This document shows positions 993 to 53,464 of a DNA stretch of 64,000 nucleotides, in pieces. A model generated the notes under the pieces. It did no database searches. It saw only the letters and a program-made list of their open reading frames with translations, and was not told the DNA's origin. How positions within the stretch are numbered: the stretch's first letter is position 1; every line of letters starts with the position of its first letter. The DNA comes from a bacterium. Lineage in GTDB: Bacteria > Armatimonadota > Zipacnadia > Zipacnadales > UBA11051. The translations under genes and the position numbers were made by a program. Location of the stretch: the NCBI GenBank assembly GCA_030604405.1, contig JAUVVY010000006.1:14589-78588 (forward strand). The letters run 5' to 3'.

Positions 993-2099
993 TCAGGTAA
1001 CCTCCAGAATGGAGCCGGCAATGTGACGCGTCCCGTCATCTATGTTGAAGTAATAAGCAATCAGCATACGATCGTCAGCCATGCGAACAGCCCAGGGATA
1101 GCCGATGTCACCGTTGCCGCCGTCGGTGCGAATGACGAGCTCCCCCGCTTCATTGAGATTCTCGCACTCCGGCTCCAGCAACCGACAGCGGATTCCGAAC
1201 GGCTCCCTGCGATAACCGTACGCCAGTAGAATGCGACCGTCCGGCACTGTGGCAGTCGTAAACGGATGCCCCCACACTTCAGTACGGTCCCATTGCGAGA
1301 AGGTCTTGCCGCCGTCAAGCGAATACGCTACTGCCAGATGCCCGTCCATGTCGGCGGTCCGCATGAACGCCATCAGCTTCCCGCCTGCGGTCATGTGCAG
1401 AGTTGGCTCGCCGAACTTGACGGTTTCATCCGCGGCTATCTCGCTGAAGTATCGCCAGCTCTCTCCGCGGTCATCAGAGCGGTACAGTATCGCGGATCTC
1501 AACGGCCCGGGCTCCGGTGTGCAATACGCCGGCAGTAGCACCGTACCGTCATCCAGCTCGCACATCCGCCCTCTGCAGTACGCACGGTTGGGCGCGCCCG
1601 GAAACCACTGCGGATAGCTCGGCACGGGCTCCAGTGCCACCGGTCCCGACCACGTCTCGCCTCCGTCCTCCGAGCGCACGACGCTCCCGCCCAGGCACAT
1701 CATCCACCAGCCAGTGCCTGACTTCCCGGCACCCTCTACTTCGTACTCCGCCACACCGTCACACAGCAGCTCCCACGAGAAGGTCGAGCAGAGCAGAGTT
1801 CCGTCTGAGAGTTGCGCCAAGCAGGGGTCCTGGTTCCCCGCCCGAGGGTGGATGAATACTGGCGTCGGCTCCTCACTCCACGTTTGGCCGTCGTCATCTG
1901 ACACGACCTGGACGAGCCAGCTATTGGGGTCCGAGTGGGTAACCTCCGCGCCGGGCCTGGTGCGCCGCTCGGGAGCACGCCGGAAAGCGAGAATGAGGCG
2001 ACCATCCGACCGGCAAATCACCGATGGAAACGAAGAATAATACTCCTCATCGCTATATGTGACTATGTCCTGGACCTTGTGCAAATCCATCTGGATCAC
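993..2099 (-). CDS. Sialidase-like (BNR/Asp-box) beta-propeller glycosidase
   Basis: Asp-box repeats SDDDGQTW, SEDGGETW, SDDRGESW, SLDGGKTF; FPSV...FRR and DIGYP motifs. Confidence 0.8.
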   Translation of the reverse strand: MIQMDLHKVQDIVTYSDEEYYSSFPSVICRSDGRLILAFRRAPERRTRPGAEVTHSDPNSWLVQVVSDDDGQTWSEEPTPVFIHPRAGNQDPCLAQLSDGTLLCSTFSWELLCDGVAEYEVEGAGKSGTGWWMMCLGGSVVRSEDGGETWSGPVALEPVPSYPQWFPGAPNRAYCRGRMCELDDGTVLLPAYCTPEPGPLRSAILYRSDDRGESWRYFSEIAADETVKFGEPTLHMTAGGKLMAFMRTADMDGHLAVAYSLDGGKTFSQWDRTEVWGHPFTTATVPDGRILLAYGYRREPFGIRCRLLEPECENLNEAGELVIRTDGGNGDIGYPWAVRMADDRMLIAYYFNIDDGTRHIAGSILEVT

Positions 2100-2137: not shown

Positions 2138-4309
2138 TCAGCCGACCCAGGGAATCGGGGTGACATTCATGAGTTGGAGTTCCGGCACCTCGGTCAGCTC
2201 GCCGGCCTTGGCCTGTGCTCGCACCTCAGCCAGTGCGTCATTGAGCTCCAGCAGGAAGGTTCGGAGCAGCGTCATCTCGCGCAGCATGTGCGGGACCTGG
2301 TAGCTCTCGCGATGCGTCTCGATGTACTCGAACAATTCGTCCATCTGTGCCACCGCCGCCTGCAAAGCCTCATCGCTGCTTGCCAGCGTCTCGACGGCGG
2401 CTGCGATCTCTTCAGTTCCGGCGCCGGCTTCGAGGTTGCGATAGGCTTTGATTATTCCCGCCGCGCTGTTGAAGCAGGCGGCCATGGTCTTGATGCGCTT
2501 GAGTTCGACGGCGTAGATGTGCCGCAGCGATGCATCCTTCCACGGCAATTTGTCAAACATGTCCAGCCCGCGATCCGCCTCGGTTATCACGCTGGTCAGC
2601 AGATTCGTGGTCATGTGCGAAGGCTTGCCAGCCATGTGCTCAAGCTGGGGGCGTGGATAGTTGTCGCGCGCGGTCGCTTGCTCCCGCGTCTGTCCATAGT
2701 CGTAACTATAGCGGAACAGGCTGGAGATAAGTCCCAGGGCGGGCGGGCTGTCAACGAGGCTGCCGAATATTCGCAGTCCCTCCAGGCCCTCCTGCCAGTT
2801 GTCACCGAATAGGCTCCGGGCATATTTTTTCAGGAAATCCTCTATTTCGCCGCCGCCGTCGTGATTCCAGCTCCATTCGCTCTGAGCTGCAAAATGGCGG
2901 TGGAAGGCCGGATCGAAGACGCCGTAACTCTCCATGCCTTCGGCATCCTCTTCATGGCCCAGGCGCGCGGCCAGAAAGATATTGTCCAGATGGCCGCGGT
3001 AAGACATCTGATAGTAGTAGCCCGTCATTGGGACCACCCAGCGGCGGAAACCGAGCTCGGGCATCGTGGTGTCGAAAAAGCTGCGGTAGCGCCACCACTC
3101 GAGGATAATGTCGTCGCGCACGCCGGCAGCCTCAAGATTGGCGGTCAGTTCCTCGTTCATACTGCCGCCGCGGACAAGCTGGTCGTGCCACATACTGATG
3201 TTCTCAATGCCGTTTTCTTTGAGGCGCTTGACTATCGCGCTTATGTATTTCACGTAAAGCTCGGCTTCCGTGAATTTGCTGCACGTAGAGCACTGGCACC
3301 AGGGGCTGATGCGCTCATAGGGGCGGTCGGGGTGCATCCCCGACAACGGATAGACCTCGTCAGCCGCAATGTGATACGATCGTGAACCGTTGGGCAGCAG
3401 ATATTTCTGGCAGATCTCGTCAATTATCTCGAACATTACCTCGTAGGTCCGTGGATTAGTCAGGCAGAAGCCGTAGCCGGTCGGGTTGCCCTCGGCATCA
3501 AGCGCAGAGAGCTCCGGGATCGTCCGGGGTATCAGTGAATTGTGCCCGGGCGTGTTAAAGTGCGGCCGAATCATGACGCCAAGCGAGCTGCCATAGGCCG
3601 CCAGTTCTCCGAAGAAGTCCTCTTCAGCCATCCGCGGGATATAGTCGAGCACCTTGTCCTCGCCATCGCTGGCTGAATAGTACTCAATGTGCTGCGGACT
3701 TTTCAGCTCCGGGTGGCTCTCGAGGTTGAGCATCATCCATTCGGAGACCTGGCCGTGATACTGCATCGGCCAGCAGTTGTAAACACCCACGGTCAGCACG
3801 TTATATTTCATGTCCACGAGATAGTCCACGGCGTCTTTCCAGTCCTGGAGCGACATCAGGTCCTGGCCCCAGCGCGACTCGGCAAAGAGCCCGCGCCACT
3901 TGCGGTCGGGCCAATCACGGATCGTCAGACCCTCGGCGCCCAGCGCGCCATTACGCTTCTCAATCAGGGCCGCCAAAGTCACAGCGCCCCAAAGCAGGCC
4001 CTGTCCCGCAGAGGCAGTTATCGTCGCCCGCCCACTGGCGATAGTCAACTCATAGGCCTGATCGGCGTTGCTGCTTGCAAAGCCCGTCGCCGCCTCATCA
4101 AGAACGAACCTAATATCAGCCTCGCCCTCGGCGACGCGGCCGCCTGCGGCCTCGATGCCGCGGCTGATGCGAGCAATAGCCGCATCGGCCAATTCGCCCT
4201 CACCATCCGGTGCGGCGATGCCGACTACACCCTGGCCGTCGCCCAGGGTAACGAAAACGTCACTCCACTTCATCTCTTTTGGTTGCGGAAAGATTACAGG
4301 TTTGTCCAT
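2138..4309 (-). CDS. GH20-like beta-N-acetylhexosaminidase family protein
   Basis: N-terminal PQPKE and EAYxL-type domain, IRDWPDRKWRG, NTPGH, catalytic-like HIAADE. GGAG RBS before ATG 4309. Confidence 0.78.
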   Translation of the reverse strand: MDKPVIFPQPKEMKWSDVFVTLGDGQGVVGIAAPDGEGELADAAIARISRGIEAAGGRVAEGEADIRFVLDEAATGFASSNADQAYELTIASGRATITASAGQGLLWGAVTLAALIEKRNGALGAEGLTIRDWPDRKWRGLFAESRWGQDLMSLQDWKDAVDYLVDMKYNVLTVGVYNCWPMQYHGQVSEWMMLNLESHPELKSPQHIEYYSASDGEDKVLDYIPRMAEEDFFGELAAYGSSLGVMIRPHFNTPGHNSLIPRTIPELSALDAEGNPTGYGFCLTNPRTYEVMFEIIDEICQKYLLPNGSRSYHIAADEVYPLSGMHPDRPYERISPWCQCSTCSKFTEAELYVKYISAIVKRLKENGIENISMWHDQLVRGGSMNEELTANLEAAGVRDDIILEWWRYRSFFDTTMPELGFRRWVVPMTGYYYQMSYRGHLDNIFLAARLGHEEDAEGMESYGVFDPAFHRHFAAQSEWSWNHDGGGEIEDFLKKYARSLFGDNWQEGLEGLRIFGSLVDSPPALGLISSLFRYSYDYGQTREQATARDNYPRPQLEHMAGKPSHMTTNLLTSVITEADRGLDMFDKLPWKDASLRHIYAVELKRIKTMAACFNSAAGIIKAYRNLEAGAGTEEIAAAVETLASSDEALQAAVAQMDELFEYIETHRESYQVPHMLREMTLLRTFLLELNDALAEVRAQAKAGELTEVPELQLMNVTPIPWVG

Positions 4310-9355: not shown

Positions 9356-10141
9356 CTAGATGTCACCATACTTCGCATACGCACATGCAGAATGATTGTG
9401 TATGGATTCGAAACTTTCACAGTCGGCCGAACAGCCGATGACTTCCGGCTGCTCTTTCAACGCAATTATCGTATCCCGCACCACGTCTTCGACAAACTTG
9501 GGATTGTCATAGGCCGCTTCAGTGACCATCTTCTCATCTGCGCGCTTCAGCAGCGGAAACATCTCACAACTTCCCTGCGCCTCCAACAAAGGTATCAAGT
9601 CCTCGAGCCATAGTACCGCCCCTGACTGACAATTCACGCGTGCGGATAGCATCGCCCGCTGGCTGTGAGCGCCGCGGTCAGAAATCTCCTTCGAGCACGG
9701 ACACAGCGTGACGATTGGGACAGTCGCACCCACCAAGAACCGGAAGACGCCATTTTGGATGGTACCCCTGAAACTGCAATCATAATCAAGCTGGCTGACG
9801 TGCCCCGAAGCCGGGGCAGTTTTGGACAAGAAATACTTGAACTCCAACAGCAGGCGTGCTGCCGGCGCTGCGAAATCATCCAGGATCCGCCGCAGCGTCG
9901 CTTCCATCTCGACCATCGAAACCGCTTGCTTGCTCCAGGATGATAGAATATCCACGAAGCGGCTCATGTGCGCGCCGCGCTGGATATCCGGCAGCGTCAC
10001 GCTGGCCTCTACCTGCCCCAGCACACGTGCATACCCGCCATCCTTCGCCCTGACCTGCACAGGCAAGTGCAGGTCTCTTATGCCGACCCGATCAATCGTG
10101 ATGCCCCTGTCATCAGTCTCTGACGCTATGTCTTTCATCAC
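9356..10141 (-). CDS. folE2: GTP cyclohydrolase IB (FolE2/MptA family)
   Basis: IDRVGI, RGAHMSRF, TLCPCSKEIS..GAHSQR, AYDNPKFVED, FESIHNHSA. Confidence 0.96.
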   Translation of the reverse strand: MMKDIASETDDRGITIDRVGIRDLHLPVQVRAKDGGYARVLGQVEASVTLPDIQRGAHMSRFVDILSSWSKQAVSMVEMEATLRRILDDFAAPAARLLLEFKYFLSKTAPASGHVSQLDYDCSFRGTIQNGVFRFLVGATVPIVTLCPCSKEISDRGAHSQRAMLSARVNCQSGAVLWLEDLIPLLEAQGSCEMFPLLKRADEKMVTEAAYDNPKFVEDVVRDTIIALKEQPEVIGCSADCESFESIHNHSACAYAKYGDI

Positions 10142-10172
10142 TTGCCTCGTGCCATCAGAGAAACGGAGTGCG

Positions 10173-11321
10173 TCAAAGAGGATCGCTTACATCAACCCAT
10201 CTGCCCTCTGCGACACTTTGCCTTATCGCTGCATCTGCCGCCTGCGTCCGGGCACCATCGTACAGGGTAGCCGTTCCCAGACGACCTTCACTCAGAGCCA
10301 TCAGGAAGTCAAAGATGCTCTGGATATGGAAACGCATCCAGCCGACAGGAAGTTTGGGCGCGGGCAACGCCGACGGCTTCGGGTAGCGCTGTACGCACTC
10401 GATCTGCTTGTAACCACGACTCCCGCCCAGCTCGCCCTCCTCATCGCGCATGTCGTAAGCATAGAGAAAATTCGCGTCCATCATGTCGAACTTCAGGGAG
10501 CCGTTTTCACCGTATATCTCATAGGTGAAACCGTCCTGCGTGCCGGTGGCGAAACGCGAGGCCTCGATAAGCCCACGCCCACCGCGGGCCATCTCCGCCT
10601 CGAGGCACACGTAATCGTCCACCTCGACCGGGCCCATTTCGGTCGAGCCTGCCGCGACCGGCCGCTGTGCGATATACGTCTGCATCGAGCCGCGCACCCT
10701 GGCAATGTCGCCGAGCAGATACTGCATCATGTCAATGATGTGACTGCCGAGATCGCTCAGCGCCCCGCCCCCAGACTCCTTCTGCAGCCGCCACGACAGC
10801 GGCCGCGAGGGGTCGGTATAGCCGGCGTGGTAATAGGTGGCGCGGAAATGGTAAAGCTGGCCCAAGAAGCCATCGGCTAGCATCTGCCGCGCCCGCATGC
10901 AGGCCGGAATGAAGCGGCAGTGAAACGCCATCCCATGGTATTGCTCCGGTCGCTGACGGGCCGCGGCCACGATCTGCTGCGCCGAGGCCAGCTCCACCGT
11001 CAGCGGCTTGTCACAATAGACATGCTTGCCAGCTTCCAAAGCCGCAATGATCTGGCCCTTGTGCAGATGGTTCGGCGAGCAGATGTCAATGACATCAATG
11101 TCCTCGCGCTGCAGCAACTCTTCAAGGTCCGTGGTGCCGAAGCTGAAGCCGCCTTGGTCAGCGGCTCGCTTTGCCGTCTCTGGCCGGCTGGTACAAACGC
11201 CCACCAGTTCCGCCTTCACAGGACACTGCTCAAAAAACAGGGGCAGACTCTGATACGCATGAGTATGCACCTTGCCGATGAAGCCGAAGCCGACGAGGCC
11301 GATGCCGATTCGCCTGCTCAT
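10173..11321 (-). CDS. Gfo/Idh/MocA family oxidoreductase
   Basis: GLVGFGFIG Rossmann motif, ICSPNHLH, VYCDKP, GGGALSDLGSHIID. Confidence 0.93.
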   Translation of the reverse strand: MSRRIGIGLVGFGFIGKVHTHAYQSLPLFFEQCPVKAELVGVCTSRPETAKRAADQGGFSFGTTDLEELLQREDIDVIDICSPNHLHKGQIIAALEAGKHVYCDKPLTVELASAQQIVAAARQRPEQYHGMAFHCRFIPACMRARQMLADGFLGQLYHFRATYYHAGYTDPSRPLSWRLQKESGGGALSDLGSHIIDMMQYLLGDIARVRGSMQTYIAQRPVAAGSTEMGPVEVDDYVCLEAEMARGGRGLIEASRFATGTQDGFTYEIYGENGSLKFDMMDANFLYAYDMRDEEGELGGSRGYKQIECVQRYPKPSALPAPKLPVGWMRFHIQSIFDFLMALSEGRLGTATLYDGARTQAADAAIRQSVAEGRWVDVSDPL

Positions 11322-11435
11322 TGCGCTGCTCACCTGTGTTCTCGCTCTTCTGCGGGATACCTGGTCTTATCAAGGATAACATATATTTCGCCGCCGTAGC
11401 GTTGATGCCTGCCGGTAAGTACAGGAAAATATGCA

Positions 11436-11459
11436 GGCGGAGCCTGCCGACGCTCCGCC
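11436..11459 (-). terminator. Possible terminator hairpin after the DegT-family gene
   Basis: ggcggagc-N8-gctccgcc with a weak downstream U-tract. Confidence 0.4.
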
Positions 11460-11486
11460 CACCTGATCCGCTGAGCCCGCAATCCG

Positions 11487-12749
11487 CTACTTCTGGCTGC
11501 GGTAGTAGTCGGCCACCTTGCGAATGCCTCTGGCGATTATCTCGGCGTGTTCTATGGTGTGGCCCTCGGTCCAGCCGGAGGCGAAAATGTTCTGCTGCCC
11601 CCAAAGTGCGCCCGGATAGTCATTGACATCGTACTGCGGATCGCGGCCATAAGGCGGCTCCCACGGAAACTCAGAATCGCCGTACGCGACATGGTTGGCG
11701 ATGCACGGTGTGGTGACCATAGGTGTGCCACCAGCATAACCGGTTGCGAAAGGCATGCCCTCGGCGCTGATAGCTTGGGCGAATGTCTGCCTGTCTATGC
11801 CGAGGACCTGCTCGTCAATAGTGAAGGCGAACCGCCACCACGAGTGTCCCGTGGTCTTCGGATACATGTACGGCGGGTTGATGCCCTCGATAGCCTCGAG
11901 CAGACTGACAAGATGCTCCGCCGACTCCCGCCGGCGCTGAAGGATACTGGGGAGCTTGCGGGCCTGGGCCAGAGCCACCGCGCCGGTGACCTCGTTCATC
12001 CGGTAGTTGATGCCGATGCGCTGCACGATCCGCCCCTCGGTGCGACCGGTGCGATCGTAGAACTTATCGTGGAAGTCACGAGTGCGGGCATAAAGCTCCT
12101 CGTCGTTAGTCGCCAGCATACCTCCGTCGCCGGCCGTAATCTGCTTGCTCTGCTGCAGGGAAAAGCAGCCGATATCGCCGAAGGTGCCGACGGGCTGCCC
12201 ATCGTAGGTGGCACCGTGAGCCTGAGCGCAGTCCTCGATCACATACAGGTCATGGCTGCCGGCAATCTCCATGATCTCGTCCATCAGGCAGGGCTGCCCG
12301 AACAGGTGCACGACCAGAATGGCGCGGGTGCGGTCGCTTATCCGCTCTTCGATTGACTTGGGATTCATGTTGAGTGTCAGCCTGTCGAGGTCGGCGAAAA
12401 TCGGAATGCAGCAGCACTGCACGATGCCGATGTAAGTGCCCATGTCTGTGACCGGGCTGGTGATAATCTCATCACCGGGGTTCAACTCCAGCGCCGCTAC
12501 CGCGGTGTGCAGCGAGGCACTGCCAGATGTCACCGCCTGTACGTGTTTGATGCCCAGGAATTGAGCGTACTCCTTTTCGAACTGCTCGACCATGGTCCCG
12601 GAATAGCGGAACATCTTGCCGCTGCGAATCACTTCCGTGACCAACGCGATCTCTTCATCGCCCAGATCGCGTCCGCTGACGTCACCGGTTGAGGGGAAGC
12701 CCTCAGTCGCTGTCTTCGGCCCGCCATTGATCGCAAGTTCTTCAGCCAT
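11487..12749 (-). CDS. DegT/DnrJ/EryC1/StrS family PLP aminotransferase
   Basis: VTSGSASLH, VHLFGQP, IEDCAQAHG, FSLQQSKQITAGDGG (PLP Lys), GINYRM. Confidence 0.94.
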   Translation of the reverse strand: MAEELAINGGPKTATEGFPSTGDVSGRDLGDEEIALVTEVIRSGKMFRYSGTMVEQFEKEYAQFLGIKHVQAVTSGSASLHTAVAALELNPGDEIITSPVTDMGTYIGIVQCCCIPIFADLDRLTLNMNPKSIEERISDRTRAILVVHLFGQPCLMDEIMEIAGSHDLYVIEDCAQAHGATYDGQPVGTFGDIGCFSLQQSKQITAGDGGMLATNDEELYARTRDFHDKFYDRTGRTEGRIVQRIGINYRMNEVTGAVALAQARKLPSILQRRRESAEHLVSLLEAIEGINPPYMYPKTTGHSWWRFAFTIDEQVLGIDRQTFAQAISAEGMPFATGYAGGTPMVTTPCIANHVAYGDSEFPWEPPYGRDPQYDVNDYPGALWGQQNIFASGWTEGHTIEHAEIIARGIRKVADYYRSQK

Positions 12750-12793
12750 TTGAAAGCCTCCGTCTGTATTATTGCTAAACGGTGTCGCTACTC

Positions 12794-12856
12794 GCCTAAC
12801 CCCCTAGCCCCCTTCCCTAGCAGGGAAGGGGGAATCAAAAGGGCGTTGGGTTAGGC
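12794..12856. repeat. Nested palindromic REP-like element
   Basis: Inner perfect 11-bp inverted repeat cccccttccct-agc-agggaaggggg (12808-12832) inside a 9-bp outer repeat gcctaaccc/gggttaggc. Confidence 0.7.
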
Positions 12857-12890
12857 CAAGCCACAATGTCAGTACTTACCTCAGATGAGT

Positions 12891-12919
12891 ATCATAGACA
12901 GGACGCCAGCGAATTGCAA
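12891..12919 (-). promoter_or_regulatory. Sigma70-type promoter TTGCAA-17-TATGAT with extended TG
   Basis: -35 at 12914-12919, -10 at 12891-12896, upstream of the DegT gene. Confidence 0.6.
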
Positions 12920-12930
12920 ATCGGCTCGGA

Positions 12931-13758
12931 CTACGCGCAGGTCGCCGCTATTTGCCGCGCCAAAGCCCGGTTGTCGGCATGGCCGGTGCGATATGCCAGC
13001 ACATGCGCACACAACGGTTGGCCCAATAGATACAGGTCACCCAGCAAGTCCAGCAGCTTGTGCCGCGCCAGCGCATTGCCCGCAAAAGGCGACTCCGAAT
13101 AGTGGTCATCATAGACGATCAAGCAGTTCTCTTCGCTGCCTGCGGCGATCATCCCCGCCTGCTGAAGCTGCTGCAGTTCGTGCTCCGTGGCAAACGTCCT
13201 GGCAGGCGCGATCTCTTCGCCAAAACCGTCCGTGGTCGTGTCGAAGTCGGCAAACTGGTGGCCGATGAGCGGGTGCGGATGAACCAGTGAATAGGAGAAC
13301 CTCGCCGCATCTGCCGGCAGCAGAATCAAGGCCCTGTCCTCAGCGATGTGGAAAATCGGCTCGTCGGGAGTAATCGGCGCGTACTCGGCCGCAAGTGACT
13401 TCTGTCCCGCTGCCTCTAGCGCCTGATAGAACGGCAGTGCGCTGCCATCGAGTAGCGGAATCTCCGGCCCGTCAACAGCTATTCGCACATCAGTAATCCC
13501 CCACGCCCACAAGCCGGCCAGCAGGTGTTCGACGAAATCAACTCGGCCACGGTCATCACCAATAGAGGTGCAATTGGGCAAGGCGAGCGTATGATCGAGG
13601 TCAACCGGCCAGGTGAGGTCAAGGTCGCTGCGGGTGAGCGTAATGCCGCAGTCCGCCTCCGCCGGCAGCAGTCGCAGCGTGATGTGCTTGCCACTGCGCA
13701 CGCCGAGGCCGGCAATCTCTATCTCGTCTCGTATTGTTTTGCGCGGTACGGTGCTCAT
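12931..13758 (-). CDS. lpxC: UDP-3-O-acyl-N-acetylglucosamine deacetylase
   Basis: VEHLLAGL, EIPLLDGSA, IAPARTF, ARHKLLDLLGDL, GHADN. RBS before ATG 13758. Confidence 0.95.
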   Translation of the reverse strand: MSTVPRKTIRDEIEIAGLGVRSGKHITLRLLPAEADCGITLTRSDLDLTWPVDLDHTLALPNCTSIGDDRGRVDFVEHLLAGLWAWGITDVRIAVDGPEIPLLDGSALPFYQALEAAGQKSLAAEYAPITPDEPIFHIAEDRALILLPADAARFSYSLVHPHPLIGHQFADFDTTTDGFGEEIAPARTFATEHELQQLQQAGMIAAGSEENCLIVYDDHYSESPFAGNALARHKLLDLLGDLYLLGQPLCAHVLAYRTGHADNRALARQIAATCA

Positions 13759-13832
13759 CTCGCCTCGGTTTTCACTTATACACTCAGGGCTTGGGCTTCG
13801 CTCGTTCTTTATGGGCTGCCAGTTCACCTCTG

Positions 13833-14144
13833 CTACGAGGGCTGCTTGCGTGGGTGCCCGGGGCACAAGACGCCGTGGACGACATACCAGACTTGTTCGT
13901 CGTTGGCCTGAGGTAATACCTCGCTTATGGCGGCTTCAACGGCTGCATTCTCCTCCTCGGCCAGGCCGCCCTTCTCGAAGCCTGTCGCCTTGCTCTTTGT
14001 TTTGTACCAGTCGCAGCCACCCCCACAGCCGTATCTGTGCAGCAGTTTCCGCGCCGCCTCGCTGTCCACGCCTTGCGTCTCCGCGACCCGCGAGATAATC
14101 TCTTCGACCTGGCTTTTCTCCTGCTCGGTTGCCTCCATATTCAT
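13833..14144 (-). CDS. Small acidic hypothetical protein with CGGGC and CPGH motifs
   Basis: AAGGAG RBS; helical acidic sequence; HRYGCGGGCDWY and HGVLCPGH. Confidence 0.7.
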   Translation of the reverse strand: MNMEATEQEKSQVEEIISRVAETQGVDSEAARKLLHRYGCGGGCDWYKTKSKATGFEKGGLAEEENAAVEAAISEVLPQANDEQVWYVVHGVLCPGHPRKQPS

Positions 14145-14371: not shown

Positions 14372-15538
14372 TCAGTAGCTTGCCTGCAGGAGTTGCATCA
14401 GGTGCTCGCGGGTTACTTCGCCGGGAGTCTTGGCGATGGCGTGGTGCATGTATCGCTGCCCATCATCGGCAATCGTGTCCAGCATGTCCTCCGGAACGCC
14501 CAGGTCGCTCAGCGTCACGTCCATATCCACACGAACCAGGAACGCCTTGAGGGCTGCGGCTGTCTGGGATGCGGCCGCCTTGTCATCCGGCTCGTCAACC
14601 CCAAAGATGCGCGCGATTTCGGCGAATTGCTCCGGCGCTCGCTCCCAGATCATCTCGGCCCACGCCACCAGCACCGCCGCCAGGGCCGCGCCGTGGGGGA
14701 TTTCCGGACAGCGCCCGCTAATCGGGTGCCCGACACCGTGCATGATATTGGTGCCGGTCTGGGAAAGGACATAACCGGCAAAAACGTTGGCCAGCATCAT
14801 CCCTCGGCGGGCCTGCTGGTCGCTGCCATCGGCCACTGCGGCAGGCAGATGCGCTGCCACCAGTTCGATGGCTCGCAGCGCCCACTGGTCTGTTATCGGG
14901 TTGCCGACTCTGGATACGTAGCCTTCGACGGCGTGACAGACCACATCCACGCCTGTGCCAGCAGTTACCTCCGGCGGCATGCTGTAGGTAAGCTCAGGAT
15001 CCTCAATCGCGACGCGGGCGTACAACGCGTCTCCCGTGAGGGAAGTCTTCTCCCGAGAGTCCGGTACGGTGACAACCGCGAATGGCGTCAATTCGGATGA
15101 GGTGCCCGCAGTTGAGGTTACTGCGATGATGGGTAGCGTGGCCTCGGTGGGCGGCTTTTTCTTGCCAGTCTCATCGGGGAGGAGAAATTCGGTCATAGAT
15201 TCGTGAGTCGCAGCCACAGCAATGTTCTTGGCGCTGTCCATGGCGCTGCCACCGCCGAGGCCGACCAGGACATCGCAGCCCGCCTGCTTAGCCATCCGGC
15301 CGCCTTCGACAATGACATCAAGTGTGGGGTTAGGCGGAATCTTGTTGAAAACAGTCACCCGCATCCCGGCCTGTTCGAGCAGGTCCTGGGCCTTCTGCAG
15401 GTAGCCGGACTTTTCCATGGCGTAGCGGCCGGTGACCAGCATCGCGTGCCGGCCCAACGGTGCGGTCAGATCTCCAAGCTGTGAAAATGTCCCTTCTCCG
15501 AAGATAAGCCGTGTCGGGTTGTAGTACGAGAATTCCAT
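14372..15538 (-). CDS. Iron-containing alcohol dehydrogenase family
   Basis: NPTRLIFGEG, PNPT, GLGGGSAMDSAK, TTAGTSSE, DVVCHAVE, MHGVGH, HG motif. Confidence 0.93.
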   Translation of the reverse strand: MEFSYYNPTRLIFGEGTFSQLGDLTAPLGRHAMLVTGRYAMEKSGYLQKAQDLLEQAGMRVTVFNKIPPNPTLDVIVEGGRMAKQAGCDVLVGLGGGSAMDSAKNIAVAATHESMTEFLLPDETGKKKPPTEATLPIIAVTSTAGTSSELTPFAVVTVPDSREKTSLTGDALYARVAIEDPELTYSMPPEVTAGTGVDVVCHAVEGYVSRVGNPITDQWALRAIELVAAHLPAAVADGSDQQARRGMMLANVFAGYVLSQTGTNIMHGVGHPISGRCPEIPHGAALAAVLVAWAEMIWERAPEQFAEIARIFGVDEPDDKAAASQTAAALKAFLVRVDMDVTLSDLGVPEDMLDTIADDGQRYMHHAIAKTPGEVTREHLMQLLQASY

Positions 15539-42485: not shown

Positions 42486-42632
42486 GGCTGCCTTTGAGCA
42501 GAAAAGCGCCAAGGCCCGGTTCGGCCCTTTTATATCGTGGCCAAGGCAGGCCTCTACTGCTCACTGTAGAAATTGAGAAGCGGTATCGCATATTAAACCA
42601 TGCCATCAAGTTGTTGGCAAGGAGGCTATCAC

Positions 42633-45353
42633 ATGAGCCTTTCACAGTTTGCAGCCATTTCCTGTAGTCTGATTATTGTTGTTGCGGCGCTGCCCACGTC
42701 CGCGCAGCAGCACCCGGTCTATGACCCGGGCACACCATCCACTACTTATACAAGGTACGCGGACGAGTGCCTCCGATTTTCCGAGGCGCAAGTCCGCGAG
42801 ATGATCACCGAAAAGGCGGGGTTCCACGAAATCCAGTGCCCCAATTGCACCATGGGGCATCAGGGCGCTCAACTGGTGTGGGACCCTGCGCACCCCAAGC
42901 AGGTCAAATGCAAATACTGCGGGATGGTTTATCCCAACGAGAAGTACCCCATGGACAAAGTCTATCAACACCAGGCCCCGACCGGCAAGATTCAACAGTA
43001 CCCTTACTACGAGCGCGAAGACGGCTTCCACCACTTCTTCCAGGCCAAGATTGACTATCACGCCCGCTACTGGCTGGCCGGCAACGCCTATCACTGCGCG
43101 TTGACGTACTGGCTCACCAAAGACACCAAGTATGCGCGGCGGGCAGTAGTCATACTGCACCGCATGGCAGAGGTGTATCCGCACCTGCCTATCCACGGCC
43201 TCGACGGCTACACCTTTCGCCGGCCAATGTGGGCTGACAACGAGCCGCCGCATCCCTACCTGTCACAGAAACTGGGCTCAACCTGGTTCTACAGCGAGAT
43301 TCACACCGGCATGGTGCGGGCTTGCGACATCCTCTATGACAGCGGGGAGTTCGAGAAGCTTTCGCAGGAAGTTGGCGTGGATGTCAAGCAGATGGTTCAG
43401 AAAGACCTCATTGAGGGCATGGCGGACTTTACGTTGACCTTCGACCGCTGGATAACCAACATGACGCCTAGCTGGTGTAACAAGCTGATCGTCGCCGGGC
43501 GCGTCGTCGGCAAGCCGAACTACATTCATGAGGGCGTCAACATGCTCCGCAAGACCCTGAATGACAAATTCTTTGCCGACGGAGTGTGGAGCGAGTCGGC
43601 GGTGTCGTACCACCGCCAAACGGTCGGTGGACTGCGCAGCGCATTTAGTGTCGCGGTGGGATATTCCGATCCGGAGGGATACAGTTTTCCTGAAACGGGA
43701 GAACGCCTCGACGATTACGATCCATTTGCGGCTGAGACTTTCCTGCAGAAGGTTCTTGTGGGCATGGAGCCAATCGCCTATCCCGATGGTGTCTATTGCT
43801 GCGTGCATGATACGTGGGCCAGGGCAAAGACTGAGCCGGCTGCCGAAGCAAACTCCACACTGCTGTGGAGCATGGGCCATGCGGTGCTCGAATCACAGAT
43901 CGGCCCACTGGCTGCCGAAGCACAATTGCACTTCTCCGGCTCACATGGACACGCTCACGCCGACCCGCTCAATCTGACCTACTGGGCCTACGGGCACGAA
44001 CTGGTCTCCGATCTGGGCTACACGCACACCATATACCGCAGCTATGCCGGTTCAGCGGCGGCACACAATCTGGTCATTGTTGACGAAATGCCCGGTTACC
44101 ACGGTACGCATAGTATTCCGTGGGATGGCGAGTTGCGGGTATGGCATCGGGCCGGTGACATCGCCAAAGCAATCAGTGTAAATGTGCCGACAGCTTACGG
44201 GAATTGCGATCTGTATCAACGCACGGTCGCACTGATTGAGCGGCCGGATGCGCCGGCGTATATGGTGGACTTCTTCGATGTGCGTGGTGGCTCGCAACAC
44301 GATTGGCTGATGCGTGGCAGCGCCGACCACGATCAGACGGCATCCGCACATGTACCGATGGAGAAGCTGGACTATACGCTGCTGGGGCCGAGCCGCAAGC
44401 TCGTGCGCTATATCAATGAAGGCGGCCATCGGCTGGTGGCAGTAGGCGCCAAGTGCGCCAACGACAAGCCCGAAGAGGGCGCTGAGGTGCAGTATAATCC
44501 GTATGGCCTGATTCGCGACCTGCAGCGGGCTCAGACAGCGGACAACTTTGTCGCCACGTTCGAATACATCGAGCCTGATAAGCCGCGCATGGAGCTGCAT
44601 CTGCTGGCCGATGCGCAGAGCGAATACTATCTCGGCACCGCTCCCAGCATCAAGCGGTCAAACCAGGACTCGGCAACCGTTGACGATGTGCGCCAGCCGC
44701 TGGTGGTCGTGCGGCGCAAGGGCGAAGAGGGCCTGCAAAGCCGCTTTTCGGCGTTGCTTTGGCCCTATATGCAAGAGGCTGGCTTGACCTCATTTGCCTC
44801 GCTTACAGCCGAAGGCCAGGTAGTAGGAGCCGAGGTTCAGTTCCGCGGCTACACTGACCTGATCGTAGCGCCCCCACAGAAGGCTGAGCAGCCCATCAAT
44901 ATAGCCGAGCACGACCTGACAACCGATGCGGCTTTTTGTATAGTGCGGTTGCAGGATGGCAAGGTAATCGCAGCCGAACTGAACAATGGCACACTGCTGC
45001 GGCTTGGCGAGTTCAAGATCGCCGCCGAGGGGCCACTGACTGGTGAAATTGTCGAGGCGAGCGGTGGTCTGAAGGATGGCTCCACGGCGCTCAAGGTTGC
45101 AAACTTGAGCACCGGGCACGAGCCGCTGGCAGGTGCTGACGTTTACGTGCAACACGCCGACGGCGCATTTTCACTGCTCGAACTGAAGAGTGTAGAAAGC
45201 AAAGATGGGAACACTTATCTGCACGTGGTCGAACCGCCGGATTTCAGTATCGAGGGCGAAGAGACCAAATTCCACTTCTACCCGCTCCGCACCATCGAGG
45301 GGCGGCCGAAGTTCAGGATTAATTCTTGCGTGAGCTGGCAGGTGCAGAGTTAA
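42633..45353 (+). CDS. Secreted heparinase II/III-like polysaccharide lyase
   Basis: AGGAGG RBS; signal peptide; alpha/alpha region with DGVWSESAVSYH; HGHAHADPLNL, DLGY, AAHNLVIVD. Confidence 0.82.
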   Translation: MSLSQFAAISCSLIIVVAALPTSAQQHPVYDPGTPSTTYTRYADECLRFSEAQVREMITEKAGFHEIQCPNCTMGHQGAQLVWDPAHPKQVKCKYCGMVYPNEKYPMDKVYQHQAPTGKIQQYPYYEREDGFHHFFQAKIDYHARYWLAGNAYHCALTYWLTKDTKYARRAVVILHRMAEVYPHLPIHGLDGYTFRRPMWADNEPPHPYLSQKLGSTWFYSEIHTGMVRACDILYDSGEFEKLSQEVGVDVKQMVQKDLIEGMADFTLTFDRWITNMTPSWCNKLIVAGRVVGKPNYIHEGVNMLRKTLNDKFFADGVWSESAVSYHRQTVGGLRSAFSVAVGYSDPEGYSFPETGERLDDYDPFAAETFLQKVLVGMEPIAYPDGVYCCVHDTWARAKTEPAAEANSTLLWSMGHAVLESQIGPLAAEAQLHFSGSHGHAHADPLNLTYWAYGHELVSDLGYTHTIYRSYAGSAAAHNLVIVDEMPGYHGTHSIPWDGELRVWHRAGDIAKAISVNVPTAYGNCDLYQRTVALIERPDAPAYMVDFFDVRGGSQHDWLMRGSADHDQTASAHVPMEKLDYTLLGPSRKLVRYINEGGHRLVAVGAKCANDKPEEGAEVQYNPYGLIRDLQRAQTADNFVATFEYIEPDKPRMELHLLADAQSEYYLGTAPSIKRSNQDSATVDDVRQPLVVVRRKGEEGLQSRFSALLWPYMQEAGLTSFASLTAEGQVVGAEVQFRGYTDLIVAPPQKAEQPINIAEHDLTTDAAFCIVRLQDGKVIAAELNNGTLLRLGEFKIAAEGPLTGEIVEASGGLKDGSTALKVANLSTGHEPLAGADVYVQHADGAFSLLELKSVESKDGNTYLHVVEPPDFSIEGEETKFHFYPLRTIEGRPKFRINSCVSWQVQS

Positions 45354-45373: not shown

Positions 45374-45402
45374 TTGTGGGCGCGTCGCGTTTGTGCTATA
45401 CT
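45374..45402 (+). promoter_or_regulatory. Promoter TTGTGG-17-TATACT with extended TG, for the T-box leader
   Basis: -10 at 45397-45402, about 28 nt before T-box Stem I. Confidence 0.65.
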
Positions 45403-45427
45403 GGCTCGAAATCAAACTGCAGCGCAA

Positions 45428-45745
45428 AAGGCGATGAAAGGGACAAGTAGGATCGGCGATTGCTCTGAGGAGACTTGCGAAGCTTGATTCCTCGCAGAGA
45501 GCCCGGTTGCTGAGAACGGGCGGGCAAGACCGGTCTGAAGATCGCCCTGGAGCCGCGAACCGAACGGACCAGCGCTCTGCCACAGGGCAAGGCCAGTCCT
45601 ATTAGACTTCGCCGGAGCTTCGACCGTTATCCTGAAGACGACATCGGCTCTCACCGGCCTGTGTCGCCTAAGAGGTTCCCGCAAGGGAGCAAACAGAGTG
45701 GTACCGCGGATAGATCCGTCTCTGATCAGAGGCGGATTTTGTGCC
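45428..45745 (+). ncRNA. T-box riboswitch, Ile specifier (AUC), transcriptional
   Basis: GA motif GCGATGA, AGUA (45446), AG bulge AGAGAG, apical GGTTGCTGAGA, GAA-G-ATC-G specifier loop (ATC 45541-45543), CCGTTA in Stem IIA/B, T-box AGAGTGGTACCGCG (45695-45708), terminator. Confidence 0.93.
45715..45742 (+). terminator. T-box attenuator terminator
   Basis: tccgtctct-gatc-agaggcgga-tttt; its 5' arm overlaps the 3' arm of the antiterminator. Confidence 0.88.
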
Positions 45746-45802
45746 ATCTGCCGATACCGGGGTTTAGTTTGTCAGTGTGCGCTCGGCCAGGAGGGGTCTC
45801 AG

Positions 45803-47374
45803 ATGCAAAGGGTCGCAATCTATGACACAACATTGCGCGACGGCTGTCAGGCTGAGGGCGTTGCCTTCAGCGTAGAAGACAAGCTGCGGATAGCGCGGAG
45901 GCTGGATCAGATCGGCGTAGCCTACATCGAGGGCGGCTGGCCCAATGAGACCAACCCCCGCGACCGGGAGTTTTTCCAGCGCGCCGCCGACATCGAATGG
46001 CAGACGGCAAGGATCGCTGCCTTCGGAAGCACTCGCCGAGCCAATATTGCCCCTGAAGACGATCAGCAACTCCAGGAGCTTATCGCTTCCAGGGCCCCGG
46101 TGATAACCATCGTTGGCAAGAGCTGGGACTTTCACGCCACCGATGTCCTGCGCGTGAGCCTGGATGAGAACCTGCGGATGATCGAGGACACCATCGCCTA
46201 TCTGAAGGATCAGTGCGAGGAAGTCATATTCGATGCAGAGCATTTCTTTGACGGCTACAGGGCGGACGCTGAGTATGCGATGGAATGTCTGCGTGCTGCC
46301 GATAGAGCCGGGGCCGATGCCTTGGTCTTGTGCGATACTAACGGCGGAGCGCTGCCTGATGCAATCCGACAGATCGTGGCGACGGTGAAGGTCGAGTTCG
46401 ACACGCTGCTGGGGATTCATTGCCATAGCGATGCCGGCGTGGCAGTTGCCAACAGTATTGCTGCGGTGCAGGCCGGCTGCAGCCAGGTGCAGGGCACCAT
46501 CAACGGTTATGGCGAGCGCGCCGGCAACACCAACCTCTGTGTCATCATCCCTAACCTGGAACTGAAGCTGGGCATGCGGTGTCTGCCCGAGGGCAATCTG
46601 GCTCAACTGACCGAACTGGCTCACTTTACAAGTGAGATCGCCAACCTGCCACCGGACAACCGCCAGCCTTATGTGGGAACGTCTGCTTTTGCGCACAAGG
46701 GCGGGATGCACGCCAACGCGGTCTTGAAGAATCCGACTTCGTTTGAACACGTCGAGCCAGAGACAATTGGCAACGATCGCCGCATCCTGGTTTCCGACTC
46801 CTCGGGAAGCTCCACGATAGTCCACAAGCTGCGGGAGATTTGGCCCGACCTCCAGCGCGATGATCCGCTGGTGCGCCAGGTGCTTGACCGCATCAAGCAT
46901 CTCGAAAAGGACGGATACGAGTTTGAGGCTGCCGAGGCCTCATTCGAACTGCTGGCAAAGCGGCTCAAGGAAGGCCTGAGCCCGCCGTTCAATTTGCACG
47001 GCTACCGTGTTACCATCTACAAGGCCGATGAGAACAGCGAACCGTACTGCGAAGCTACCGTCAAGGTCGGGGTGGGAGACAAAGATGTACACACCGCCGG
47101 CGAAGGCACCGGGCCGGTCAATGCTCTGGATAACGCGCTGCGCAAGGCTCTGACAGAGCTCTTCCCGAAGCTCACAGACTTCAGCCTCACCGACTATAAG
47201 GTGCGTGTTCTGCGGGCCGATGAGGGCACTGCGGCGGCAGTCAGAGTGCTCATAGAGACCTCCAACGGCGAAAAGAGCTGGGGCACCGTTGGCGTGCATG
47301 AGAACATCATCGAGGCAAGCTGGCAAGCTATCATCGACTCGCTGATTTACGGTCTGCTCAACAGCGGCGATTGA
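45803..47374 (+). CDS. cimA: Citramalate synthase (LeuA-related CimA clade)
   Basis: YDTTLRDG.Q.EG, IEGGWP, GKSWDFH, FDAEHFFDGY, CDTNGG, HCHSDAG, SAFAHKGGMH, C-terminal allosteric domain; AGGAGG RBS. Confidence 0.88.
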   Translation: MQRVAIYDTTLRDGCQAEGVAFSVEDKLRIARRLDQIGVAYIEGGWPNETNPRDREFFQRAADIEWQTARIAAFGSTRRANIAPEDDQQLQELIASRAPVITIVGKSWDFHATDVLRVSLDENLRMIEDTIAYLKDQCEEVIFDAEHFFDGYRADAEYAMECLRAADRAGADALVLCDTNGGALPDAIRQIVATVKVEFDTLLGIHCHSDAGVAVANSIAAVQAGCSQVQGTINGYGERAGNTNLCVIIPNLELKLGMRCLPEGNLAQLTELAHFTSEIANLPPDNRQPYVGTSAFAHKGGMHANAVLKNPTSFEHVEPETIGNDRRILVSDSSGSSTIVHKLREIWPDLQRDDPLVRQVLDRIKHLEKDGYEFEAAEASFELLAKRLKEGLSPPFNLHGYRVTIYKADENSEPYCEATVKVGVGDKDVHTAGEGTGPVNALDNALRKALTELFPKLTDFSLTDYKVRVLRADEGTAAAVRVLIETSNGEKSWGTVGVHENIIEASWQAIIDSLIYGLLNSGD

Positions 47375-47416
47375 CCGCCGTCGCTCATGCGGCCGGTCAA
47401 TGCGGGGCGAGGAACC

Positions 47417-48148
47417 ATGAAATGGACGCGGTATTGTGCCGGCTGCGGCTATGCGATGTCGCACCTGGACGAAGTATGTCCACGCTGCGGACTGGCGGAA
47501 GATGCCGAGCCAGCCGAGGCTAAGCACGTCGAGCCTGCCGCCTCACAGCCACCCGAATACGAAGGCGACGAAGCGAAGCCAGAGACGGTGGTACAACAGC
47601 CTCGCAGCATCACTCCGCTGATAATCGGGGCAGTATTATTGCTAGTAATCATAGGGGCTGGAGCGCTTTGCTATATGCTGGCGCGAGACGGAGTGGACCC
47701 TCAGCCCGCTGCGCAGCTTGGCCCCGGAGCCCTGACCGGGGCCCTGCCCCATCGCTCAAGCGACAGGGCGCTGCCACCCGGGCGGTCGCTGCCGGCTTCC
47801 GGTTCGGAGATGGCACTGCCCCTGCCTTCAGGAATTGGGACGCTCTTCGAGGCTCAGCCCAGCCCCCAGGTGACGCCCACCGTCGTCATGGCGAACCGCT
47901 CAGACGAGACTATATATGTAACTTTCCGTGGCCCAGCAGCAGTCGCCAAGACCATGCCGCCGCATGGCACCATCGAATTTCAACTCCCACGGGGCACCTA
48001 TTCGCTTGCCATGTGGTCTTACAGCGTCCCGCAGCAGCAGGGAACTGCGGTCTTTAGAGAGCGCACCCGCTACACCAGCCAATGGTACATCATCCAGGTG
48101 GCCCCGTGGGAAGCCGGGGAGCCGATACGCATGGGCGATATTGAATAG
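47417..48148 (+). CDS. Zinc-ribbon bitopic membrane protein
   Basis: CAGC...CPRC at the N-terminus, Pro/Glu linker, one TM, C-terminal beta-sandwich-like domain. Confidence 0.75.
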   Translation: MKWTRYCAGCGYAMSHLDEVCPRCGLAEDAEPAEAKHVEPAASQPPEYEGDEAKPETVVQQPRSITPLIIGAVLLLVIIGAGALCYMLARDGVDPQPAAQLGPGALTGALPHRSSDRALPPGRSLPASGSEMALPLPSGIGTLFEAQPSPQVTPTVVMANRSDETIYVTFRGPAAVAKTMPPHGTIEFQLPRGTYSLAMWSYSVPQQQGTAVFRERTRYTSQWYIIQVAPWEAGEPIRMGDIE

Positions 48149-48181
48149 ATTACAAGCGCTATCTATCAGGGAAGGCAAGCA

Positions 48182-48985
48182 ATGGGCGAAGAATTCGACA
48201 GTCAGCAAGCCTTGGAGCTAACGCGCGAACTGGTCAGCCAAACGGGTCGGCTTGCGAAGGACAGCTTCGGCCTGGCCGAGGCGCAAATGAAGGCCGATGG
48301 CAGCCTGGTCACCAAGGCCGACCGGATGATAGAGCAGATCATCCGCGAGCGCCTGCAGCGCCACTATCCCGACCACGCCGTCTATGGCGAGGAGGACGGC
48401 CTGACCGGCCCGCAGGACTCCCCATTCTTGTGGCTGATTGACCCCATTGATGGCACCAACAATTTTGTCCGCGGTGTCCCGCTGTGGGGCGTCTCGCTCG
48501 GTCTTTTCTATGAAGGCATGCCCTGCCTGGGCGTCTTCGGGATGCCTTGCATTGAGCAGACTTTCTGGGCCGCAGAGGGAATGGGTGCGTACTGTAACGA
48601 CCACCCGATTTCGGTTTCCCGAGGTGGCGAACTGGCGCACAATGACCTGCTTATCACCTCCGCGCCCAACATAGGCTGCTGGGACTACTGCGGCCCGGTG
48701 AAATATCGCAACGTCGGTTGCGCTGCGTATGGGATGGCCCTGGTTGCCTCGGGAAGCGCGATAGGCTTCATCAACGGCCACTGGCATTTGTGGGACGCGG
48801 GGGCGACATTGTCTCTGCTCAAAGAGGCCGGCGCACTTGTGACCGACGTGAGAGGCAAATCCCTTTACGACATAAGCGGCTGTGACTATGCGGCGCTGTG
48901 TCCGTGCATGATCGCCGCCTCGCCGGAGTATCATAACCTGTTGATGGAGCATGTAAGGCCAACTGGGCAAAGCCCATCTTTCTAA
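48182..48985 (+). CDS. Inositol monophosphatase family (SuhB/HisN-like)
   Basis: VTKAD, GEE, WLIDPIDGTNNF, WDAGA. Confidence 0.92.
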   Translation: MGEEFDSQQALELTRELVSQTGRLAKDSFGLAEAQMKADGSLVTKADRMIEQIIRERLQRHYPDHAVYGEEDGLTGPQDSPFLWLIDPIDGTNNFVRGVPLWGVSLGLFYEGMPCLGVFGMPCIEQTFWAAEGMGAYCNDHPISVSRGGELAHNDLLITSAPNIGCWDYCGPVKYRNVGCAAYGMALVASGSAIGFINGHWHLWDAGATLSLLKEAGALVTDVRGKSLYDISGCDYAALCPCMIAASPEYHNLLMEHVRPTGQSPSF

Positions 48986-49047
48986 GGGGCTCTCCTCCCA
49001 CAAGCACAGGGACATTGTAAGCAAGAAGGGCGCATCTTCTTCTAGCT

Positions 49048-50019
49048 ATGGACTACGAGGAACTCGCACAAGACATCCTGAGCAAGGCGACAGGGCGTGA
49101 AACCCTGGTGCCGATTGTGGCCAGTGTAGGCCTCTTCGTCGTCATGGGCTTTTTCTCGCTGCGCGCGCTCAAGCGGTTGCCCGACTTCGAGCACAAAGCA
49201 GAGATGGTGTGGGGGGCCAAGTGGTACTGGGCTGTGTGGTTGGCCATGTGCGCAGTAGTTTACGGTACGTTGTACTATGGCCTGACGGCGACACCTTACT
49301 TGCTCACTACTCTAATCACGACACCGGTTCTGTTGTCCCTGCTGTGTTGGTTGTCCATACGCTACCTGGACCACCAGAGCACCGGTGCTCTCTTTTGCAT
49401 GAACGTGTTCAGCGCGCGACTGCGCGGAAAGAAGTTTGACCTTGGCGAGTGGCAGGAACGCCAGCGTAAACTGGCCAGCAAGCAACGCATCATCCGAGCT
49501 ATTGTCCACGCCCTCCACATCGTGATCGGAGTATTCTATCTGTACATCGTGCTTGCAGTGAGCTATCCGGCGGACCGTTGGTCGGCCGAAATGCGACGCG
49601 TTGAGACACTCGGTGAGCATATCAAGGTGCAACTGCACTCCGAACGCATAGACGAATTTGACGCCGTTCCGGCCATCCCCGATTTCGAGCATTTCCTCTC
49701 CACAGGCGGCGTGCAGCAGGCCTGGCTATCATTGAGAGATATAGTACACCTGGCGCCCAAGGTGCCCGGGCCGCCTGACCGAGATCTCGACTACTACCAC
49801 ATCTTCATCAAGGCAACACCCGGGACTGGCCAAGCCGAGGCAGAGGAACTCTTGGCCCGCACACAGCAGGCACTAATCGCCGCAGGCGAGGACCACTACT
49901 GGAGGATCATCATCTCCAGCCGCGACAAGGCTGTGTCGGTGCGGGGCGTGTGGCCCGAAGGAGCCTCCGTAGGTCAGGAGGGGGGAAATTGGGGACAGTC
50001 ACCTATTCCAGAGGAATAG
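49048..50019 (+). CDS. Three-TM membrane protein with a C-terminal soluble domain
   Basis: Hydrophobic segments; no motif recognised. Confidence 0.7.
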   Translation: MDYEELAQDILSKATGRETLVPIVASVGLFVVMGFFSLRALKRLPDFEHKAEMVWGAKWYWAVWLAMCAVVYGTLYYGLTATPYLLTTLITTPVLLSLLCWLSIRYLDHQSTGALFCMNVFSARLRGKKFDLGEWQERQRKLASKQRIIRAIVHALHIVIGVFYLYIVLAVSYPADRWSAEMRRVETLGEHIKVQLHSERIDEFDAVPAIPDFEHFLSTGGVQQAWLSLRDIVHLAPKVPGPPDRDLDYYHIFIKATPGTGQAEAEELLARTQQALIAAGEDHYWRIIISSRDKAVSVRGVWPEGASVGQEGGNWGQSPIPEE

Positions 50020-52997: not shown

Positions 52998-53073
52998 TGG
53001 AGGCGGCAACCGGACTCGAACCGGTGAATAGCGGTTTTGCAGACCGCTGCCTTAGCCTCTTGGCTATGCCGCC
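52998..53073 (-). tRNA. tRNA-Cys(GCA)
   Basis: Cloverleaf; anticodon arm gcggt-ctGCAaa-accgc; encoded CCA; U73. Confidence 0.96.
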
Positions 53074-53083
53074 GGAAAAGACA

Positions 53084-53159
<76 letters not shown>

Positions 53160-53205
53160 TCTAGCAACTGAAACAGCTATTTCCCACACCTAATGCCTAT
53201 CTTCT

Positions 53206-53281
53206 TGGAGCGGGAAACGGGGATCGAACCCGCGACCCTCAGCTTGGGAAGCTGATGCTCTACCGACTGAGCTATTCCCGC
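53206..53281 (-). tRNA. tRNA-Gly(CCC)
   Basis: GCGGGAATAGCTCAG...ttCCCaa...TTCGA...CCCGCTCCA. Confidence 0.97.
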
Positions 53282-53284
53282 TTG

Positions 53285-53360
53285 TGGTGGGCGGTAGAGG
53301 ACTCGAACCTCTGACATCTTCTGCGTGAGAGAAGCGCTCTTCCGACTGAGCTAACCGCCC
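53285..53360 (-). tRNA. tRNA-Val(CAC)
   Basis: GGGCGGTTAGCTCAG; anticodon arm cttct-ctCACgc-agaag; CCA end. Confidence 0.96.
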
Positions 53361-53376
53361 GTGATGCTGTCAAGAT

Positions 53377-53464
53377 TGGTGCCGAGGGCGGGATTCGAAC
53401 CCGCACAACCTAGTAGGTCACTAGCCCCTCAAGCTAGCGTGTCTGCCAATTCCACCACCTCGGC
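53377..53464 (-). tRNA. tRNA-Leu(GAG)
   Basis: GCCGAGGTGGTGGAATTGGCAGACAC; ctagc-ttGAGgg-gctag; long variable arm; CCA end. Confidence 0.96.

Follow-up and report, generated by a model that had tools for sequence, protein, structure and literature searches.

T-boxes are found mostly in Bacillota, where class I leaders include those of Bacillus subtilis ilv-leu (ilvB), tyrS and glyQS. Outside Bacillota they have been described in Actinomycetota, Chloroflexota and Deinococcus, and in Geobacter and Pelobacter ahead of leuA (PMC2494555, PMC3766115). The 64,000-nucleotide stretch of DNA analysed here (positions 14,589 to 78,588 of contig JAUVVY010000006.1, assembly GCA_030604405.1; hereafter the window, to which all coordinates refer) comes from a marine-sediment metagenome and carries on its plus strand a class I (transcriptional) T-box leader, complete and with its terminator included (45425..45740; RF00230 match and covariation on 14 leaders), ahead of cimA, a gene for citramalate synthase (45803..47374). 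The sequence makes it very probable that this leader is a functional, transcription-attenuating T-box specific for tRNA-Ile, which controls cimA and possibly three genes downstream of it. The mechanism is that of an ordinary T-box, in a little-documented host phylum, Armatimonadota, and with a logical target; T-box control of cimA is apparently unreported.

Like the class I leaders of Bacillota, the cimA leader possesses a K-turn, an S-turn specifier loop, an AG bulge and a distal loop, followed by Stem II, a IIA/B pseudoknot with F-box, Stem III with RRRNG, a UGGN bulge and competing terminator and antiterminator structures; unlike them, it has an Armatimonadota host, an extra stem before Stem III and a variable hairpin branch on Stem I. 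It resembles the B. subtilis ilv-leu leader in having a target in branched-chain amino acid synthesis, but its specifier is isoleucine (AUC) instead of leucine (CUC), and it precedes a stand-alone cimA instead of an ilv-leu operon. As in Geobacter and Pelobacter (PMC2494555), a single T-box lies before a LeuA-family synthase gene in a Gram-negative host outside Bacillota, but the published target there is leuA (2-isopropylmalate synthase), whereas here it is cimA. Sensing of tRNA-Ile outside Bacillota would be shared with the isoleucine T-boxes of ileS in Actinomycetota, Deinococcus and Dehalococcoides (Wels 2008), but those regulate an aminoacyl-tRNA synthetase and not a biosynthetic enzyme, and the actinobacterial ileS T-boxes are translational with a short Stem I, unlike the cimA leader. 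The enzyme is comparable to the citramalate synthase of Geobacter sulfurreducens, being of the TIGR00977 family and predicted to catalyze the first step of the threonine-independent isoleucine route; unlike the Geobacteraceae cimA loci examined, where a T-box is missing, the cimA of the window is preceded by one.

The Rfam match to RF00230 (45425-45726, plus strand, 95.5 bits, E 1.1e-19) covers model positions 1-219 of 219, lies above the gathering score of 93 bits and is the sole T-box found by Rfam within the window. The original prediction, made from the letters alone, had claimed a complete T-box and named this Infernal search as a check; the full-length match and the covariation described below bear the claim out. 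The long Stem I (45431..45553; Rfam, folding, covariation of helices 1-5) contains a K-turn (GCGAUGA/GGAGC), the helices AGGG (45439-42) with CCCU (45545-48) and GGAUCGG (45450-56) with CCGGUCU (45530-36), which flank AGUA just as first described, a further helix (UUGCUC/GGGCAA), an S-turn of AGUA (45446-49) opposite GAA (45537-39) in the specifier loop, an AG bulge (CAGAGA, 45495-45500), and a distal hairpin with the helix GCCCG/CGGGC and the distal loop GUUGCUGAGAA (45506-16). Stem II and the Stem IIA/B pseudoknot (45555..45637; Rfam, covariation of helices 6-9) are formed by GCGAA (45555-59) with UUCGC (45608-12), CGG (45613-15) with CCG (45624-26), and CUUC (45618-21) with GAAG (45634-37), the F-box of the pseudoknot being CCGUUA (45624-29). 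Between the pseudoknot and Stem III is an extra conserved stem (45639..45666), an insertion to the Rfam model that is delineated by covariation of helices 10-11. Next come AAGAG, an instance of the RRRNG motif described before Stem III of T-boxes (PMC7778990), Stem III itself (GUUCCC-GCAA-GGGAGC) and AAA (together 45670..45693; sequence, Rfam, covariation of helix 12).

This anatomy, its conservation and its covariation are demonstrated by aligning 14 orthologous leaders, all distinct, taken from contigs of related Armatimonadota. The full class I structure, with antiterminator and pseudoknot, is paired in 92.1% of cells versus 34-51% when the partners are shifted by 1-3 columns, compensatory changes are present in 34 of its 64 pairs, and none of 500 shuffles reaches any covariation measure; RNAalifold, terminator included, found 31 of 56 pairs to be compensatory. 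Compensatory changes affect five of the seven pairs in the specifier-proximal helix, 11 of the 17 in helices 6-9 (Stem II and the pseudoknot, 94-100% of cells paired), four pairs in helices 10-11 (the extra stem, 93-100% paired) and five of the six in helix 12 (Stem III). Divergence of the leader tracks divergence of CimA (Spearman 0.72, p 0.006), which argues for long co-inheritance under selection and not for recent transfer.

The 3' side of the specifier loop (GAAGAUCG, read as GAA-G-AUC-G; 45537..45544, plus strand; sequence, Rfam and the 14-leader alignment) presents the isoleucine codon AUC at 45541-45543. In the first-choice frame of TBDB the specifier is nucleotides 2-4 from the 3' end of the specifier bulge, and AUC is the specifier preferred by isoleucine T-boxes (PMC7778990); here AUC occupies those nucleotides and a purine, G, comes next. 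The orthologous leaders follow the pattern GAA-N-AUC-R, with G, A or U as N and A or G as R, and the frame is secure because AUC is invariant (14/14) while the base preceding it varies, so the isoleucine specifier originally proposed stands. The T-box bulge UGGUACC (45699-45705) is also invariant in all 14 leaders, and its UGGU implies a partner tRNA with A73, in agreement with the first reading. Bacterial tRNA-Ile generally carries A73.

The antiterminator (CAGAG-UGGUACC-GCGGA-UAGA-UCCGU-CUCUG, 45694..45724, plus strand; Rfam, folding, covariation of helices 13-14) holds this 7-nucleotide, UGGN-containing bulge, which is predicted to pair with the tRNA 3' end, ACCA. An intrinsic terminator (45713..45740, plus strand; folding, covariation) has an 11-base-pair stem, a GAUC loop and a U run, the stem at 45713-45738 being followed by UUUUGUG. 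Terminator and antiterminator are mutually exclusive because nucleotides 45713-45724 are common to both, as the original prediction had held for the antiterminator and a U-tailed terminator. Folded alone, the terminator is the stabler of the two (-16.0 kcal/mol, z -4.1, with none of 200 shuffles as good, versus -8.7 kcal/mol for the antiterminator), and the overlap of a stronger terminator hairpin with a weaker antiterminator indicates that transcription terminates by default. In the RNAalifold consensus the terminator helix is retained and covaries (alignment columns 453-485), and the hairpin and U run are kept in 14 of 14 leaders; the run is short in this genome (UUUU-G-U-G) and consists of six U in the two closest relatives, L001 and L002. 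Beyond the switch, a Shine-Dalgarno sequence (GGAGG, 45790..45794, plus strand, from sequence) is located 8 nucleotides before the ATG of cimA and is not sequestered, since it lies 50 nucleotides past the terminator. Ahead of the leader is a promoter-like site (45374..45402, plus strand, from sequence) composed of TTGTGG (45374-79), a 17-nucleotide spacer with TG, and TATACT (45397-45402), and transcription probably starts near its TG-n-TATACT box (45394-45402); an extended -10 element (TGCTATAnT) is also found 20-25 nucleotides ahead of the leader in four relatives (L164, L166, L167 and L169). A consensus promoter scan made no call in the leader region, because the -35 element matches at only three of six positions.

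In the mechanism that these features suggest, transcription would start about 15-25 nucleotides ahead of the leader, and Stem I would dock the tRNA by pairing of the specifier AUC with the anticodon GAU while the platform that the AG bulge forms with the distal loop stacks against the elbow of the tRNA. The ACCA end of an uncharged tRNA would pair with UGGU of the T-box bulge and stabilise the weak antiterminator (45694-45724), so that RNA polymerase would read into cimA, whereas charged tRNA-Ile could not stabilise the antiterminator, the terminator (45713-45740) would form and transcription would stop. The tRNA response, as predicted from the leader sequence, would thus attenuate transcription according to the charging of tRNA-Ile, and the first enzyme of the citramalate route from pyruvate to isoleucine would be made only when charging falls.

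The regulated gene, cimA (45803..47374, plus strand; TIGR00977, Pfam), starts with ATG at 45803 and encodes a protein of 523 amino acids that scores 731.8 bits against the NCBIfam equivalog for citramalate synthase (TIGR00977, cutoff 450). Models of LeuA, NifV and LysS (isopropylmalate and homocitrate synthases) all score under their own cutoffs on this protein, the best LeuA model (NF002085) reaching 293 bits versus a cutoff of 517. Pfam domains are the HMGL-like catalytic barrel (PF00682), HCS_D2 (PF22617) and the C-terminal LeuA_dimer regulatory domain (PF08502), and its identity to Geobacteraceae orthologues, among the matches listed, is 51-55%. PMC12131731, citing Risso 2008, states that G. 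sulfurreducens sends more flux to isoleucine through citramalate than through threonine. The protein model identifies the enzyme as CimA, with pyruvate as the probable substrate, to which the predicted isoleucine specificity of the switch lends indirect support. That the LeuA-like enzyme is CimA had been proposed on the grounds that the RNA independently identifies it; the leader does add RNA-based support, but it is not needed for the identification, for which the curated protein model suffices.

Several observations weigh against a functional tRNA-Ile switch at this locus. The margin of the Rfam match over the gathering score is only 2.5 bits; an extra 27-nucleotide hairpin (described below) adjoins the AG bulge, a contact site for the tRNA elbow; the sole RNA run from the source sample gave zero coverage; and a simple terminator scan made no call at the leader hairpin, which it missed because this genome has only a short U run. 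The short run and the failed scan would also suit a class II, sequestrator-type T-box acting on translation, as on actinobacterial ileS, and high GC content is a trait that the host shares with bacteria carrying class II T-boxes. Such translational control is nevertheless very unlikely, because the leader has a Stem I of full length that includes the AG bulge and distal loop, whereas class II Stem I is truncated (PMC7778990), because the distant Shine-Dalgarno sequence falls outside the hairpin, and because the hairpin and U run are conserved in all of the leaders, the run being six U long in L001 and L002.

The transcriptional T-box might instead be real but take its specifier from another frame: shifted upstream by one base it would be GAU (Asp), shifted downstream by one base UCG (Ser). 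Frames of -1 and +1 do exist for some T-boxes according to TBDB (PMC7778990), and the +1 frame gives UCA or UCG across the 14 leaders, both of them serine codons, but it loses the conserved purine after the codon, and these serine specifiers are rare in TBDB (UCA 0.06, UCG 0.03; PMC7778990). The -1 frame gives GAU, AAU or UAU (Asp, Asn or Tyr) in different orthologues, which is incoherent for a single gene, and citramalate synthase has a metabolic link to isoleucine but none to aspartate or serine, so that a shifted frame is highly improbable. An equally improbable alternative retains the isoleucine specifier and makes the enzyme a 2-isopropylmalate synthase, or one of dual substrate, with tRNA-Ile coupled to leucine or mixed branched-chain synthesis. 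The protein does belong to the superfamily of LeuA, CimA and homocitrate synthases, substrate use in this clade is predicted from sequence, and the PDB holds no solved structure of the CimA subfamily, the nearest entries being homocitrate and isopropylmalate synthases; against this stand the scores of 732 bits for TIGR00977 and 293 for the best LeuA model relative to their cutoffs, and placing a leucine enzyme under an isoleucine-specific switch would serve little regulatory purpose. The preferred reading is therefore a class I T-box that reads AUC and controls a citramalate synthase.

The distribution of the leader was surveyed by motif search and an nhmmer profile in cimA loci from GTDB genomes (at least 80) and JGI metagenomes (at least 80), plus contigs encoding specific homologues. 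It was found at 16 loci, all of them in the query's own clade and with CimA identities of 57-93%, and at none of the 155 sampled loci outside this clade, which include Geobacteraceae, about ten Bacillota, Chloroflexota and three other Armatimonadota (Abditibacteriaceae L023; Chthonomonadales L030 and L055); at 18 of the negative loci, the absence of a T-box was confirmed with Rfam. Thus, among the loci examined, the pairing of T-box and cimA is confined to the query's clade. A T-box before Geobacter cimA was considered and rejected: none is present within 3 kb upstream of cimA at seven Geobacteraceae and Desulfuromonadales loci (L026, L027, L047, L061, L064, L072 and L073), and the gene named in the literature is leuA (PMC2494555). 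The literature searched contains no paper that pairs a T-box with Armatimonadetes or Armatimonadota; nor does it contain T-box control of citramalate synthase, citramalate appearing only inside a COG name, although the search did not cover earlier comparative surveys.

Other elements were observed at the sampled cimA loci. In L023, a metagenome-assembled genome of Abditibacteriaceae, a gene for a tRNA-Ile whose anticodon is the rare UAU (2851-2929) lies about 60 nucleotides upstream of cimA (start about 2989) on the same strand, with a terminator preceding the tRNA gene and none evident between it and cimA; the arrangement was seen once and may be fortuitous. L170 and L171, the most distant of the leaders, are separated from cimA by an open reading frame of the PF05635 family ('23S rRNA intervening sequence protein'; L171:2506-2934 and L170:2590-3000), which follows the T-box terminator, is flanked by short runs of GATCGTA/GATGTGA-like repeats, and is called as a gene in L171 and left uncalled in L170. 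L169 has a fluoride riboswitch before crcB (1744-1827, minus strand), and L167 has an Acido-Lenti-1 RNA just downstream of cimA (3241-3288, plus strand).

In the window, comparison with relatives reveals an extra 27-nucleotide hairpin (45467..45493, plus strand) that branches off Stem I right beside the AG bulge, on its 5' side, and is missing from L002, a 93%-identical relative; the possibility that it is a genomic repeat was ruled out by its being unique in the window. Unrelated hairpins of 21-82 nucleotides occupy the same site in six of the 14 leaders, and this recurrent branch may be a tolerated or a functional addition to the tRNA-gripping arm. Only five of the 14 leaders reach the Rfam gathering score. 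The nine below it (L084, L085, L164 and L166-L171) comprise eight that score 42.6-89.9 bits and L169, with a two-hairpin Stem I insertion of 82 nucleotides, which Rfam does not report at E <= 0.001. Their low scores are attributable to the inserted hairpins and extra stem, and sub-threshold leaders of this kind imply that the T-boxes of this phylum are under-detected by default pipelines.

Downstream of cimA, three genes on the same strand (47387..50019; Pfam, spacing) encode a protein of 253 amino acids and unknown function, a 267-amino-acid member of the inositol-monophosphatase family, and a 323-amino-acid protein, also of unknown function. The successive gaps are 12, 33 and 62 nucleotides, no terminator-like site is present between cimA and the next gene, and the three genes may be co-transcribed with cimA. 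Their membership in the regulon is uncertain because only the closest relatives have this set after cimA; in more distant relatives only cimA stays with the switch. As for pathway context, there is no branched-chain amino acid gene among the window's open reading frames scanned with Pfam. Directly upstream of the leader, a gene for a 917-amino-acid protein with a weak heparinase II/III C-terminal match (42600-45353, plus strand) keeps its position in the closest relatives. On the minus strand, five clustered tRNA genes (52998-53464; Leu-GAG, Val-CAC, Gly-CCC, Gly-GCC and Cys-GCA), all with encoded CCA, include Val and Leu tRNAs with A73 and Gly and Cys tRNAs with U73. A tRNA-Ile gene was found neither in the window nor at the relatives' leader-bearing loci.

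The host belongs to the class Zipacnadia within Armatimonadota (NCBI kingdom Bacillati). Among the matches listed, those closest to this CimA carry the names Armatimonadota, Armatimonadia, candidate division WS1 or Candidatus Zipacnadia, and the best genome match (93% identity) is a Candidatus Zipacnadia metagenome-assembled genome. A host that makes lipopolysaccharide had been predicted, and this is supported by an LpxC gene (12931-13866, minus strand; Pfam PF03331, 244 bits), whose gene group fits a cell that makes lipid A and has an outer membrane. Beside LpxC on the minus strand (window 9356-13866) are genes for a DegT/DnrJ-family aminotransferase (11487-12749), a GFO/IDH/MocA oxidoreductase (10173-11333) and a folE2-type GTP cyclohydrolase I (9356-10141). 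The claim of tRNA-Ile control in a little-documented lineage holds insofar as T-boxes of Armatimonadota are barely documented, but a T-box in a lipopolysaccharide-producing lineage is less exceptional than was implied, because Armatimonadota share the kingdom Bacillati with the T-box phyla Bacillota, Actinomycetota and Chloroflexota, and because a leuA T-box has been published for Geobacter and Pelobacter (PMC2494555).

The cimA leader leaves the understanding of how T-boxes work unchanged, but it extends their documented range to Armatimonadota, a phylum that has an outer membrane and is for the most part uncultured, and it provides independent, RNA-based support for annotating a LeuA-like clade as the CimA of the isoleucine pathway. 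The Rfam gathering threshold under-detects T-boxes with inserted hairpins, a point of importance to any riboswitch census of metagenome-assembled genomes. It is possible, though put forward tentatively, that Armatimonadota have a T-box lineage of their own, structurally expanded by the Stem I branch and the extra stem, which has long been inherited with its targets and is largely missed by standard searches. If this is true phylum-wide, T-box regulons would be older and wider in Bacillati (Terrabacteria) than current catalogues show.

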